Notes: generated from the letters alone by a model not told the origin. Positions 50,441-56,854 are shown, numbered from the stretch's first letter. The stretch is 64,000 bases of DNA from Candidatus Woesearchaeota archaeon (GCA_038874135.1 JAVZCZ010000001.1:704001-768000); one strand, 5' to 3'. Numbers and translations: made by a program.

Positions 50441-52782
50441 TTTGTGCTCTGCTTTTAGGAATTGTAACTATAATCTTAGGTAGTTATGCCTGCGCTTTGG
50501 AATTTTCACCATCTTCAATTAACGAAGTGCTTTCTATTAACAAGTTTGTTCAGAAAAACATAACTTTGAAGAATGAACTCTCCTATCCGGTAAGGATTGC
50601 TCTGGTGCCCTCTTCTAACATTAGCGATTTATTAGACATCACTCCAAATTCTATTGAAATCGGGGCAAGAGAGTCAAAGAATGTTCTGGTTACAATATAC
50701 GGAAATGTTGATCCTATAAAATTTATTAATCGCTCGTATTACATCTTTAATGGCTTCATAAAGCTTGAAGGAGCTAACGCTCAAATACCTACGGACTTGA
50801 TGGTCACTAATGGAACAATAAACCTGCCCAGCAGCATGGTGCTTTCAGCATCGGCAGGTAAGGATTATTTCACTAAATCAGAAAATCTCTCTTTTATAAT
50901 TGTTGTAACGAATCTTATGACAGGCTCAAAACCAAATGTTACTCTTTTCTATTATTTCCTAATTGATAAAAACTCAGAAATTCCCGTTGGGAACGATTCC
51001 TTCATAATTACTACTTCAAAATCAGTTGTAAAGGAATTCATACCAATGTCTTCAATACCTGATGGCACCTATACTTTCAGGGTTGTAATGTCTTATGCAG
51101 ATAAGAAGAGTGTTGCTGATGTGCCCTTCAGGATATCAACCCCATTTATATTCAGAACATTCTTAGGTATAGCTGTATGGCAGTATATACTCGGAGTGAT
51201 TGCCTTAATAATAATTGGCTTGTTAGTATACTGGCGAAGGAAGCGTGTTTTGGCTTCTCGTCGTTATGGTGTGAGTGTGGATTTGCGTAGTTTTCCTTCT
51301 TCTGGTAGGCTTGTGCGTTTGGGTAAGTTGGCGGAGTATGGGCGTGATTTTTGGTTTGATTTGGATGGTTTGACTACGCATTGTATTGTGGCTGGTGCTA
51401 CTGGTGGTGGTAAGACTGTTGCTGCTCAGGTTTTGGTGGAGGAGGCTTTGAAGGCTGGTGTGGCTGTGGTTGTTTTTGATCCTACGGCTCAGTGGAGTGG
51501 TTTTTTGAGGCCTTGTTCTGATAAGGGTATGTTGTCTTTGTATTCGGGTTTTGGGTTGCGTCGTTCTGATGCTCGGGGTTTTCCGGGTAATGTGAGGCAG
51601 GTGTTGGATGCTCGTGAGGTTTTTGATGTTAGGCGTTTTATGCGTCCTGGTGAGATTGAGATTTTGAGTTTGAATAGGTTGAGGCCTGAGGAGATTGATG
51701 TTTTTGTGGCTAATACTGTTAGGAGCGTGTTTGATGCGGGTTTGGATGAGTGTCGTGAGTTGAGGTTGTTGTTGGTTTATGATGAGGTGCATAGGTTGTT
51801 GCCGCGTTTTGGCGGTTCTGGTGAGGGTTTTGTGCAGATTGAGAGGGCTTGTCGTGAGTTTAGGAAGTGGGGTGTTGGTGTTGTTTTGATTAGTCAGGTT
51901 TTGTCTGATTTTGTTGGTGAGATTAAGGCTAATATTAATACTGAGGTTCAGATGAGGACTCGTGATGAGGGCGATTTGGAGCGTATTCGTGTTAAGTATG
52001 GTGATGCTTATCTTAGGGGTCTTGTGAGGGCTAGTGTGGGTACTGGTATGTTTGAGAATCCCGGTTATAATGGTGGTCGTCCTTTTTTTGTTAGTTTTAG
52101 GCCTTTGTTGCATAGTGTGGTTCGTTTGTCTGATGCCGAGTTGGGTGAGTATAATAGGTTGAATGGGGTGTTGGATGATTTGGAGTTTTGGATTGGCGAG
52201 TTGGAGCGTTTGGGTGTGGACGTGTTTGATTTGAGGTTGGAGTTGAAGTTGGCTTGGGATAAGTTGAGGGTTGGGGGGTTTGGGATGGTGGATGTTTATG
52301 TTGAGGGTTTGAGGCCTCGCGTGTTGGGCGAGTTTGAGCGTTTGGGGAGGCCTGTTCCTAAGCGTGAGGTTAAACGCCTTTCAGATGAGGAGCTTGCAAA
52401 GCAGAGGAAGCTGGCTGAGCAGAGCCGTGCAGAGTTTATAAAAAAGATGGGCATTAAAGAGCAGCAGTCCAAGCAGGAGGAAAAGAAGGAAGAACACATC
52501 GTGCAGCCTTACACTTTTGATAATGGTGCAATGGTTTCGGAGCTTAAGGAGTTGAAAGACGCTATAGAACCTATGAGTGCTGACATCCTCAGAAGCGCGT
52601 TGAGTGGAAACAATAAGCTTTCTGATTGGATAAAGAATGAGCTTAAGAATGAGCAGCTTGCCTCTGAAATTGAGAAGGCGAAGACGAAAAAGGAGATTCT
52701 TGATGCAATAACTGCTGAACTTGATAAAGCAGAAAAGAGCAGTGAGAAATCTGGAACTGATAAAGGCCAAAAGTCTAAGTAG
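50401..52782 (+). CDS. Ectodomain-TM-HerA/FtsK-like (DUF87-type) ATPase with C-terminal DUF5752-like domain
   Basis: Signal peptide, Ig-like region, TM, Walker A AGATGGGKT, VVVFDP, Walker B LVYDEVH, REFRKWGVGVVLISQ. Confidence 0.88.
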   Translation: MQVKITRQGEKGIICALLLGIVTIILGSYACALEFSPSSINEVLSINKFVQKNITLKNELSYPVRIALVPSSNISDLLDITPNSIEIGARESKNVLVTIYGNVDPIKFINRSYYIFNGFIKLEGANAQIPTDLMVTNGTINLPSSMVLSASAGKDYFTKSENLSFIIVVTNLMTGSKPNVTLFYYFLIDKNSEIPVGNDSFIITTSKSVVKEFIPMSSIPDGTYTFRVVMSYADKKSVADVPFRISTPFIFRTFLGIAVWQYILGVIALIIIGLLVYWRRKRVLASRRYGVSVDLRSFPSSGRLVRLGKLAEYGRDFWFDLDGLTTHCIVAGATGGGKTVAAQVLVEEALKAGVAVVVFDPTAQWSGFLRPCSDKGMLSLYSGFGLRRSDARGFPGNVRQVLDAREVFDVRRFMRPGEIEILSLNRLRPEEIDVFVANTVRSVFDAGLDECRELRLLLVYDEVHRLLPRFGGSGEGFVQIERACREFRKWGVGVVLISQVLSDFVGEIKANINTEVQMRTRDEGDLERIRVKYGDAYLRGLVRASVGTGMFENPGYNGGRPFFVSFRPLLHSVVRLSDAELGEYNRLNGVLDDLEFWIGELERLGVDVFDLRLELKLAWDKLRVGGFGMVDVYVEGLRPRVLGEFERLGRPVPKREVKRLSDEELAKQRKLAEQSRAEFIKKMGIKEQQSKQEEKKEEHIVQPYTFDNGAMVSELKELKDAIEPMSADILRSALSGNNKLSDWIKNELKNEQLASEIEKAKTKKEILDAITAELDKAEKSSEKSGTDKGQKSK
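51239..52394 (+). repeat. 1156-bp direct repeat copy 1 (ATPase module), extreme G+T island
   Basis: Appears identical to 55419-56574 (offset 4180); translations match in sense and antisense frames; 51301-51360 is 48/60 G+T. Confidence 0.93.
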
Positions 52783-52970
52783 ATTTCTTATACCTTAACC
52801 AACAATGTGGTATTTATAAACTTAGATTACTTAGTATGCATTTATACACATACACTATTTGTGTCACATTTAAAAATTAGTATATAAAATGAAAATATTT
52901 ATATATCAATATACATATTTAGTATGAGTTTGTATTCAAAGACCTTGAAAAGGCTTTTTTGGGACCCGAA

Positions 52971-56300: not shown

Positions 56301-56854
56301 TTCGTTTGTCTGATGCCGAGTTGGGTGAGTATAATAGGTTGAATGGGGTGTTGGATGATTTGGAGTTTTGGATTGGCGAGTTGGAGCGTTTGGGTGTGGA
56401 CGTGTTTGATTTGAGGTTGGAGTTGAAGTTGGCTTGGGATAAGTTGAGGGTTGGGGGGTTTGGGATGGTGGATGTTTATGTTGAGGGTTTGAGGCCTCGC
56501 GTGTTGGGCGAGTTTGAGCGTTTGGGGAGGCCTGTTCCTAAGCGTGAGGTTAAACGCCTTTCAGATGAGGAGCTGCAGAAGGAAAAGGAGATTGCTATGC
56601 AGGAACATGAGAAAGCAAAACAGCAGGAAGCAGGACAAACTTCACAAAATTCAGATTCCAAGACAGAAACTTCCCAAATTCAAAACACAAAAGTTGAAGA
56701 GCAGCCCAGCCAAAATGAAAAGGCCGAGAACCAAGAGAATGCAAAATCCTCAAATGAAAATAAAATTAAAAGAGTAAGGGAGGGTAAAAAGCAGAGGATG
56801 AGGAAATCAGCAAGTTCGGAAAAAAATAATAAAAAAAGAGGTGCTAAAAAATGA
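53312..56854 (+). CDS. TM-ectodomain (two carboxypeptidase-regulatory-like + Ig-like)-TM-HerA/FtsK-like ATPase
   Basis: N-terminal TM; IFGRAIDNATGLPLENVTV and LTGTVTDKDFGIPLYNVTV repeats; TM; ATPase module identical to that of 50401-52782; charged low-complexity tail. Confidence 0.88.
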   Translation: MNKNPTFRILERDRQLERRRQQLYILLGILGVLLAVGVILLIRMFIGYAVLESRAGTITQLNIQLRYSTHIWAGFYGLAFRVPGYTEQQSAVAVGGTVFLQHLVFDCLKTTDGNIPEVYASTSRNIDWNSLQPATPDLIDSYLQVDPSDITSASNTFTETMSILLGDREITNIAATHTKKFGVPDSTDFDIGFLKDSLGNLVFVTHVTPTYTKGFNNQTINYQMLLPVQAGTAPVYYFFSDPYDECQAGLEALKNATIFGRAIDNATGLPLENVTVNLHTATVLTNSTGDYYIAIFNGTYTLVAFKPGYYTFVATNITLPADNLSTPQSENIVEFNISLIPNPGNPTGLGNLTGTVTDKDFGIPLYNVTVYVNGRIAKTNITGQYLLELPAGNHSLIAMKENYRTYYTPNVTILPGNTTEFNFSMEYAEPEIKETPGYPLNTFVSNLLKQAVQRPQIILTHKIDTKEIFETLKVGSYVQRSFNITSYRPAESKVEFEVIGSAAQLVKVDKSSSIIPPRGAENFTLTILANVPPGIYTGTFLIKGDLEDRIPIKIVVYEKDRLPIEALLLEVVPIKKIISPGELFEYKVSMTNLLRDTPYNITLSYNITSRSSNLTIPVEEETRLLETQLSYLKYYKLPKDLPEGEYFLETRAEFLELSTNTKSLFIVKKPIYMYALFGILPLWQLFIIIVFTSLMTFAGLMYRKRVLASRRYGVSVDLRSFPSSGRLVRLGKLAEYGRDFWFDLDGLTTHCIVAGATGGGKTVAAQVLVEEALKAGVAVVVFDPTAQWSGFLRPCSDKGMLSLYSGFGLRRSDARGFPGNVRQVLDAREVFDVRRFMRPGEIEILSLNRLRPEEIDVFVANTVRSVFDAGLDECRELRLLLVYDEVHRLLPRFGGSGEGFVQIERACREFRKWGVGVVLISQVLSDFVGEIKANINTEVQMRTRDEGDLERIRVKYGDAYLRGLVRASVGTGMFENPGYNGGRPFFVSFRPLLHSVVRLSDAELGEYNRLNGVLDDLEFWIGELERLGVDVFDLRLELKLAWDKLRVGGFGMVDVYVEGLRPRVLGEFERLGRPVPKREVKRLSDEELQKEKEIAMQEHEKAKQQEAGQTSQNSDSKTETSQIQNTKVEEQPSQNEKAENQENAKSSNENKIKRVREGKKQRMRKSASSEKNNKKRGAKK
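55419..56574 (+). repeat. 1156-bp direct repeat copy 2 (ATPase module), extreme G+T island
   Basis: Appears identical to 51239-52394. Confidence 0.93.

Follow-up and report, generated by a model that had tools for sequence, protein, structure and literature searches.

An identical keto-coded ATPase module in two diverged Woesearchaeal paralogues: a probable archaeal GRINS and a tentative model of strand-polar, keto-biased gene conversion

Results

The two ATPase genes and their shared module

Two neighboring plus-strand genes of a Candidatus Woesearchaeota archaeon (GCA_038874135.1, JAVZCZ010000001.1:704001-768000) share a long tract of identical, strongly G+T-rich DNA, and the extent, composition and possible origin of this tract are the subject of the present analysis. 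The window is the whole 64,000-nucleotide stretch that was analyzed, and positions are counted from its first letter unless they are given as genome positions. The short paralogue (50401..52782, plus strand, 793 aa) consists of a signal/transmembrane (TM) segment, an Ig-like ectodomain, a TM helix, an ATPase module and a charged tail, while the long paralogue (53312..56854, plus strand, 1180 aa) has a CarboxypepD_reg/PEGA-type ectodomain in front of its TM helix and the same ATPase module, and ends in a charged tail that is unrelated to that of the short one. Both genes are predicted from their domain content to encode membrane-anchored HerA/FtsK-type P-loop ATPases, with matches to Pfam DUF87 (PF01935; 37.8 and 37.1 bits, cut-off 23.2) and HerA_C (PF05872; 37.4 and 27.2 bits, cut-off 22) in the two proteins. 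The original prediction, which a model made from the bare sequence, held that the Walker motifs are intact and that the paralogues diverged long ago. Walker A (GATGGGKT) and Walker B (LLLVYDEVH) are indeed present in both translations, and the ectodomains share merely 24% identity over 229 aa, hence the paralogues are old.

The shared tract, which we refer to as the cassette, encodes the ATPase module in keto (G or T) codons and lies at 51239..52394 in the short paralogue (copy 1) and at 55419..56574 in the long paralogue (copy 2), both on the plus strand and with starts 4180 bp apart. The two copies match at 1156 of 1156 bp (100% identity), the identity extends 0 bp further leftward and its right end is at 52394/56574. 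The limits are those first proposed, directly after the TM helix (..RKRVLAS) and at KRLSDEEL, and beyond them the ungapped identity falls to the random level of 21–45%, so that the flanks are unrelated as DNA.

Consensus building or collapse during assembly could in principle make merely similar copies look identical, and the genome is indeed derived from a metagenome, while the single chimeric genes seen in two relatives (see below) could be products of collapse. The Logan contigs of two hot-spring metagenome runs, which are possibly the genome's own source, provide an independent assembly but not independent data. In both runs the tract is a single variant-free unitig of 1153–1156 bp, with depths of 113 and 92, and the flanking contigs have depths of 72 and 57, and of 49 and 33. 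That an independent de Bruijn assembly yields one bubble-free unitig, exactly as long as the repeat and about twice as deep as the flanks, means that both copies are truly identical, as they had first appeared to be. Relatives from other studies share the architecture at 97–99.8% identity, and the skew itself is not something that assembly can produce, so that an assembly artefact is hardly credible as an explanation. Just outside the cassette, in the low-complexity tail of the long paralogue (56614-56782), the window and the Logan contigs disagree, in both runs, at five sites (A>G at 56614; G>A at 56722, 56779, 56780, and 56782), which represents strain variation.

The tract contains 441 T, 429 G, 171 A and 115 C, giving a G+T content of 75.3%, and its GC content of 47% compares with a host background of 39–41%. 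Along the tract the GC skew runs from +0.5 to +0.68 and the AT skew from −0.4 to −0.55, with abrupt edges. The share of G/T at codon positions 1, 2, and 3 is 0.67, 0.62, and 0.97, in accordance with the T/G third positions reported at the outset, and in the remaining parts of both genes (the ectodomains) the third-position value is 0.39–0.51. Codon choice is reduced to about one codon per amino acid: all two-fold boxes are T- or G-ending, T is favored over G at four-fold sites, TTG accounts for 43 of 47 Leu codons (background 0.10), CGT and AGG for 22 and 20 of 45 Arg codons, GGT for 32 of 43 Gly codons, and GCT for 17 of 20 Ala codons.

This coding also leaves long antisense open reading frames (ORFs), one of 296 aa at 51223..52113 and one of 294 aa at 55409-56293 in copy 2, both on the minus strand. 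Such ORFs are open in every cassette because G/T-ending sense codons give A/C-starting antisense codons, none of which is a stop. They are compositional by-products and we rule them out as genes, as switching between the Arg codons CGT and AGG (see below) alters the antisense residue and the antisense protein is thus not conserved.

Assignment of the tract to GRINS

[quoted passage not shown] GRINS are defined as repeats of >500 bp with >80% DNA identity within a locus and mean GC and TA skew magnitudes of >0.15; the skew peaks at third codon positions, shifts the amino-acid composition, and occurs with both signs (PMC8256042). Using the windows of that definition (150 nt, step 30), we find mean skew magnitudes in the tract of 0.60 (GC) and 0.45 (TA), compared with 0.09/0.06 and 0.18/0.16 in the ectodomain DNA beside it in the short and long genes, respectively. 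With 1156 bp at 100% identity, a third-position peak and shifted residues, the tract lies within every numerical limit of the definition. The window-to-window correlation between the GC and TA skews is −0.36 inside the saturated ATPase tract and +0.45 in a second, Cys-rich tract described below, although with both skews at their ceiling this coefficient is little informative. We conclude that the tract is very probably an archaeal GRINS, an extreme one and, as far as the literature can be searched, the first from Archaea. The 2021 paper (PMC8256042) makes no mention of archaea, NucS or mismatch repair, and the only hit of a full-text literature search that combined GRINS and archaea was an unrelated engineering preprint.

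The skew accompanies homogenization in relatives

Two kinds of relative lack the skew. Orthologues of the ATPase at 50–57% identity in the order's other families have ordinary third positions (G/T 0.3–0.55), and so do lineages with adjacent paralogues whose modules are 67–79% identical (0.37–0.62). It is found in lineages where the two copies are kept alike. In L027 (87% amino-acid identity to the query), whose copies are 96.9% alike, 1 of 366 codons lacks a final G or T; in L028 (74% amino-acid identity) the copies are 99.84% alike and the exception is 1 of 407 codons; and the corresponding counts are 1 of 327 in L030, which is a mosaic of identical and diverged patches, and 0 of 402 in L031. 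Within each of four lineages the copies are 97–100% alike, and between lineages the amino acids of the cassette differ by 13–26%, with nucleotide differences between genomes of up to 15% or more. From lineage to lineage the tract's edges shift by 10–30 codons, yet in each of them skew and identity end within 5 to ~80 nt of each other. As the skew occurs only in homogenized lineages and the two edges move together, the skew travels with homogenization and not with the protein family. These comparisons bear out two expectations of the original prediction, that homogenization has been repeated and restricted to one domain, and that orthologues lacking it would have normal composition. A likeness that is greater within genomes than between them, in combination with diverged flanks, is what concerted evolution by gene conversion would leave, and this is how we read the cassette pair.

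Import from a skewed virus or plasmid donor, with replacement of the resident module in both genes, would account for a composition sharply unlike that of the host (GC 47% versus 39–41%) in what is a variable surface-gene region. At least four lineages, however, have the same cassette at one and the same position of this gene pair, their amino-acid identities ranging from 87% down to 74%, and in the same-genus genome G001 the sequence turns G+T-rich at the same codon, the contig ending 80 bp further on. Moreover, each genome has several unrelated cassettes of both polarities and no mobile-element genes flank the tract. We regard import as highly improbable.

In two relatives the pair is represented by a single chimeric gene (L029 10001-12529 and L031 6820-9381) that joins the ectodomain of the short gene, the cassette, and the tail of the long gene; relative to L028 10001-16984, these chimeras are without everything that lies between the cassettes. 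They may be either real deletions by recombination between identical cassettes or the result of assembly collapse.

Skew islands elsewhere in the genome

The genome is a single contig of 909,956 bp and 99.4% complete; its ends (6-146 and 909816-909956) overlap by 141 bp at 97% identity, which fits a circularized assembly with slightly imperfect closure. A self-comparison, suggested as a check when the pattern was first noticed, shows that nearly all of the longest repeats in the genome are skew islands: the ATPase pair, a propeller pair just outside the window (94.5% identity across 815 bp), the internal repeat of a Cys-rich protein, and Ig-like repeats in giant surface proteins. In 50-codon windows genome-wide the third-position G/T share is 0.50 ± 0.12, and only five long in-frame tracts exceed 0.9, which excludes chance; all five are at 744–783 kb of the genome and on the plus strand. 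One of these, at 40066..41511 (plus strand) and unrelated to the ATPase cassette, covers the Cys-rich N-terminal half of a secreted 776-aa protein that matches no Pfam family. Its third-position G/T share is 0.94–0.95 over 482 codons (T alone 0.76), its skews are 0.56 and 0.53, and it contains an internal repeat of 219 bp at 98.6% identity (genome 744083-744300 / 744640-744858). Orthologues of this protein in three genera of the family have patchy third-position G/T shares of 0.7–0.93.

The link between repeats and skew is reproduced in a complete genome of another family, G099 (1.13 Mb, one contig). Here a 635-bp, 100% identical repeat in two minus-strand genes is a mirror image of the ATPase cassette, with a third-position G/T share of 0.00 over ~180 codons. 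A Pfam search of the two proteins gave no family match; we refer to them as repeat proteins and not as RHS proteins. Two other G099 segments are of note. Two tandem genes at 550651-552779, which we tentatively read from the shared sequence as archaellin-like, share a conserved segment at 93.7% identity with a third-position G/T share of 0.9, and a second segment of 237 bp at 98.7% identity has a G+T content of 0.54 and no marked skew, and so is a high-identity repeat without the signature.

These islands bear on the possibility that the skew is maintained by selection, the skewed DNA serving as a low-complexity, GT-rich substrate for pairing that aids recombination and so keeps co-assembling hexamer modules identical, or that it is written by an error-prone polymerase that stabilizes keto/enol tautomers. 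HerA/FtsK ATPases are hexamers, identical modules in two differently anchored hexamer proteins could be advantageous, and the gene pair is conserved across the order. According to the proposal of the GRINS authors themselves, the skew arises from tautomer-dependent misincorporation and promotes conversion (PMC8256042). The signature is nevertheless shared by unrelated cassettes (the Cys-rich domain, the propeller, the Ig-like repeats, and a repeat protein with no Pfam match), therefore the cause is not a need specific to the ATPase. Selection would also have to beat drift at each of ~400 synonymous sites in a small-genome symbiont, and many lineages hold the gene pair at 67–79% identity without any skew. 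For the polymerase variant, no specialized polymerase was found, although no search for one was made. Taken together we consider selection or a polymerase of this kind quite improbable.

Strand polarity and replication

In the genome under study, mirror-type cassettes are represented by Ig-like repeats at genome positions 342628-351837 (plus strand) and 670125-677057 (minus strand), with third-position G/T shares of 0.00–0.12; they lie in giant surface genes of 3069 aa (plus strand) and 2310 aa (minus strand) and are inverted relative to each other at 98% identity. The existence of A/C-only mirror cassettes means that the bias belongs to a DNA strand and not to the gene or its mRNA. Strand-biased conversion as first envisaged thus stands with respect to the strand but not with respect to a tie to the coding strand, since mirror cassettes with 0% third-position G/T occur both here and in a relative. 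A transcription or R-loop model, for which a GC skew of +0.6 is R-loop-like, is out as a general cause because the sense strand of the mirror cassettes is amino-rich (A and C). Selection at the level of codons and tRNAs or of mRNA is ruled out by the same cassettes together with the shifts at codon positions 1 and 2.

The polarity can be related to replication in two relatives with clear origins, G099 and G166 (which holds L028), where cdc6, the minimum of the cumulative GC skew, and the switch in gene orientation coincide: in every cassette of these two genomes the keto-rich strand is the leading strand. In the present genome the polarity of the cassettes flips between 347 kb and 672 kb, an interval that spans cdc6 (588 kb) and, at 602 kb, an extremum of the GC skew. 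The single Orc1/Cdc6 gene (588647-588907) lies at the maximum of the cumulative GC skew (602 kb), whereas the usual position, seen in G099 and G166, is the minimum (here 93 kb). Almost everywhere on the plus strand T outnumbers A, and third-position skews are messy. Ordinary replication skew amounts to about ±0.1 at third positions over whole replichores, compared with values of up to 1.0 across 0.5–1.4 kb in the cassettes.

Tempo of change and effects on the protein

Between species 22–38% of the four-fold sites of the cassette differ, which is saturation within {G,T} and points to a long-lasting force. The differences at third positions are almost entirely G<->T (73–81 of ~80), and the ratio of transitions to transversions is 0.25–0.3, compared with 0.9–1.0 in unskewed orthologues. 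In AT-rich lineages T occupies 152 of 154 four-fold sites. The comparison of L028 with L031 is particularly telling: their flanking genes show 19–28% nucleotide difference with 42–62% of four-fold sites changed, and the cassette shows 3.5% with 0 of 164 four-fold sites changed. The cassette is conserved because its four-fold sites are pinned to T, and a recent transfer between species is unnecessary to explain the low divergence. Only Arg drifts, because its codons CGT and AGG are equally keto-rich: of 42 conserved Arg sites, 5 have switched between the two, which takes two nucleotide changes, and 0 of 156 four-fold sites have changed. In the same alignment codons 108–110 differ at 7 of 9 bases, forming one patch. 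The cassette DNA is thus close to a deterministic back-translation of its protein, and its divergence pattern carries no footprint of hypermutation.

The protein itself has been altered. In comparison with unskewed orthologues, K makes up 3.3% of the residues instead of 10.6%, I 2.2% instead of 7.5%, R 11.4% instead of 5.3%, and V 13.1% instead of 7.3%, and overall R, V, G, L, and F are enriched and K, I, Q, M, and T depleted. Eight K>R changes are at sites that are invariant among the unskewed orthologues. As codon positions 1 and 2 are shifted as well, the force acts on nucleotides and not on codons.

Repair genes and the damage alternative

The original prediction invoked a mutagenic, strand-asymmetric intermediate and suggested a search for reverse transcriptase (RT) or deaminase genes. 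No RVT_1 match was found in the 99.4%-complete genome, the same search having matched 3 of 14 named control genomes, and so we rule out a diversity-generating retroelement or retro-copying. The only CDA-fold ORF (genome 195843-196883; L038 922-1962) encodes 346 aa in which a dCMP/cytidine deaminase domain is fused to a P-loop domain resembling nucleoside/nucleotide kinases. Such a fusion is typical of nucleotide metabolism and we reject it as a polynucleotide deaminase. RadA, a RadB-like protein, and RNase HII are present, as is a gene for the mismatch endonuclease NucS/EndoMS (genome 828208-828552, minus strand), and neither a UDG-superfamily glycosylase nor endonuclease V was found in this hot-spring genome.

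To ask which repair genes go with cassettes across the 401 genomes of the order we used a proxy, a 46-codon pattern of G/T third positions (period-3 K), which is noisy. Forty genomes score 100 or more pattern matches, and 33 of them have NucS, compared with 122 of the remaining 361; this association is a lead only and is not phylogenetically corrected. The NucS-negative high scorers that were inspected have low-complexity repeats and not cassettes. Four relatives (G032, G034, G037, and G040) with many pattern matches, which were not individually checked as true cassettes, carry UDG, and on this ground loss of UDG is rejected as the cause.

The main rival explanation is that a single-stranded DNA intermediate suffers hot-spring damage (C>U, A>hypoxanthine, G oxidation, depurination) that is fixed and then spread by conversion, to which a preference of RadA for GT-rich single strands could add self-reinforcement. 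The hierarchy T > G >> A, C fits thermal damage to single-stranded DNA, in which T is the sink; the sample was taken from a hot spring, and the genome is without UDG and endonuclease V. In addition, the keto strand in G099 and G166 is the strand with the ordinary, weaker replication skew, a D-loop would leave its displaced strand exposed over precisely the homologous tract, and RecA-family proteins prefer TGG/GT-rich DNA (PMC3763553). However, the divergence of the cassette is ~8 times lower than that of its flanks and none of its 164 four-fold sites has changed, the opposite of hypermutation; on the same figures the mutagenic intermediate of the original prediction is not supported. To hold the third-position G/T share at ≥99.7%, forward rates would moreover have to exceed reverse rates >300-fold at ~400 sites, and ~270 constrained sites would bear a matching load. 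Nor do C>T and A>G changes alone reproduce the codon table: starting from the background codon usage they predict ~60% GGG and ~40% CTT where 16% and 9% are observed, and they do not yield the excess of T over G at four-fold sites or the observed TTG (43/47) and CGT (22/45) counts. UDG is retained in the four pattern-rich relatives, with the same caveat on their matches, and NucS cuts I/T like G/T (PMC4838380), so that hypoxanthine is not simply invisible to repair. On balance, we judge the damage explanation unlikely, though it deserves the most serious attention of the alternatives.

Gene neighborhood

Upstream of the ATPase pair, a gene for a surface protein with a Pfam PKD domain (46922..50440, plus strand), with a normal third-position G/T share of 0.41, is the first gene of a conserved cluster, and its synteny is maintained in L027, L028, L031, and L032. 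Counterparts of the short paralogue (771–800 aa) are present in L027, L028, and L030 and those of the long paralogue (1256–1266 aa) in L027 and L028. The cluster (window 46922-64000; L027, L028, L031, L032) is widespread in Woesearchaeota and runs from a PKD/Big-domain protein through one or two HerA/FtsK-like ATPases anchored in the membrane, and then two proteins that match no Pfam family (274 and 385 aa in the window), to a giant Big_7/Big_13 adhesin; in closer relatives a small ORF lies between the short and long ATPase genes. From its gene content the cluster is a candidate cell-surface or transfer apparatus.

Discussion

A hypothetical mechanism

Based on the relatives, the mirror cassettes, and the tempo of change, we put forward a hypothetical mechanism in which recurrent gene conversion with a strand-polar, keto-favoring bias is filtered by NucS, and to this explanation as a whole we assign a probability of about 0.45. 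We propose that conversion between the neighboring paralogues would keep the cytoplasmic ATPase modules identical and would be limited to the stretch of surviving homology. A process coupled to conversion would favor keto bases (T, then G) on one strand and amino bases on the other, and this bias would act wherever protein function leaves sites free, dragging the residue composition toward keto-rich codons as well. A drive that depends on conversion would therefore be confined to the tract, its edges would move with those of the tract, unrelated cassettes would come to look alike, and divergence would not be raised.

For the discrimination between keto and amino bases, NucS is our candidate. 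Among mismatches, NucS/EndoMS cuts G/T, G/G, and T/T but acts little or not at all on A/C, A/A, and C/C (PMC4838380; PMC6159521). We propose that the heteroduplexes have a fixed strand polarity, formed for example when the nascent lagging strand pairs with the lagging-strand template of the other copy. If the keto allele is on the donor template strand, an amino-amino mismatch would result that is not seen by NucS, and the recipient would be converted. In the reverse case a keto-keto mismatch would be formed and cut by NucS, so that only those conversions that install keto bases on one strand would survive. The outcome would be a keto-enriched leading-sequence strand, as is seen in G099 and G166.

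Several points weigh against this proposal. The mechanism rests on a match of specificities and on a noisy association; the proxy behind the association catches many tandem low-complexity repeats and most of the NucS-positive high scorers are unverified. Replichores are ambiguous in the present genome, where the leading-strand rule holds only if the origin is at cdc6. The strong excess of T over G at four-fold sites (152/154 in AT-rich lineages) demands an added assumption, either that transversions are biased toward AT or that NucS cuts A/G and T/C mismatches unequally, and the fast Arg CGT<->AGG switching is accounted for only post hoc. By a loose threshold, GRINS are reported in several bacterial phyla and in polyketide synthase (PKS) genes of amoeba and choanoflagellate, and both skew signs within 1 kb on one strand (PMC8256042); a replication-polar model with NucS alone predicts neither. 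Lastly, some of the phyla that bear GRINS have MutS/L.

A broader version of the proposed mechanism is that GRINS in general are the footprint of keto-biased gene conversion in NucS-reliant organisms, with the polarity set by replication or by a local initiation site. Actinobacteria rely on NucS and are without MutS/MutL. If it were true, keto-biased conversion would explain why skew is limited to converted tracts, why both signs exist, and why GRINS are abundant in Actinobacteria and in NucS-bearing Woesearchaeales, but we think this generalization unlikely to hold and offer it as speculation.

Significance

GRINS entered the literature in 2021 as unexplained, protein-recoding repeats that speed the evolution of antibiotic-making enzymes (PMC8256042). 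The locus described here probably extends them to Archaea and in their purest form, in which up to 100% of ~400 codons follow a rule of one codon per amino acid, and the very short list of DNA-repair genes in its 910-kb host narrows the possible causes. Any mechanism must do without an RT, without hypermutation, and without a tie to transcription or translation, must depend on the conversion of repeats, and must have a polarity that tracks replichores in the two relatives with clear origins. NucS/EndoMS provides a specific and testable candidate in that its published specificity is the keto/amino split itself. If confirmed, a new kind of biased gene conversion would be added to the forces that shape genomes. 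It would distort the codon usage and amino-acid composition of genes as well as dN/dS tests and the binning of metagenomes; assemblies of the same genus break or collapse at the cassettes.

Comparison with known systems

In concerted evolution of the tufA/tufB type, paralogues likewise stay near-identical for long times within a genome while orthologues diverge, and conversion ends where homology ends. There is no strand-specific composition in that case, whereas here it is prominent and involves one domain of proteins that are otherwise 24% identical. GC-biased gene conversion in eukaryotes and some bacteria is also a non-adaptive drive on composition that is tied to recombination, is clearest at synonymous sites, and can force amino-acid changes against selection. 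It favors G and C on both strands, however, in contrast to G and T on one strand here, and a preference of the latter kind needs a strand-polar heteroduplex together with keto/amino discrimination. Replication strand asymmetry and the bias of vertebrate mitochondria resemble the cassettes in having a keto excess on the leading strand (as in G099 and G166) and mainly at third positions, but that asymmetry is weak and replichore-wide while the cassettes are extreme and confined to repeats. With NucS/EndoMS, the gene for which is present here, the substrate split is the same keto/amino split that defines the cassettes. It is known as a repair enzyme for replication errors, and that it biases conversion between paralogues is our proposal, which is absent from PMC4838380 and PMC6159521.

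The closest parallel is to GRINS. Both systems consist of duplicated coding stretches of 0.3–1.4 kb within paralogous modules that are attributed to gene conversion, with intense GC and TA skews of the same sign, abrupt edges, and a peak at third positions. In both, residues are pulled toward Gly and Val where the skew is positive or toward Pro, Thr, and Gln where it is negative, both signs of skew occur, and the copies are closer within a genome than are homologous loci of different genomes. The differences lie in the host, the genes, and the degree. GRINS were described from PKS genes of bacteria, mainly Streptomyces, whereas the cassettes are found in surface-protein and HerA/FtsK-type ATPase genes of a 0.9-Mb DPANN archaeon. 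Copies there are 75–95% identical with a skew threshold of 0.15, in comparison with 100% identity, skews of 0.60/0.45, and third positions that are 97–100% G/T here. Finally, in Streptomyces the sign of the skew can flip within 1 kb, while in three Woesearchaeal genomes each cassette keeps to one polarity, which follows the replichore, in the present genome provided that its origin is at cdc6.

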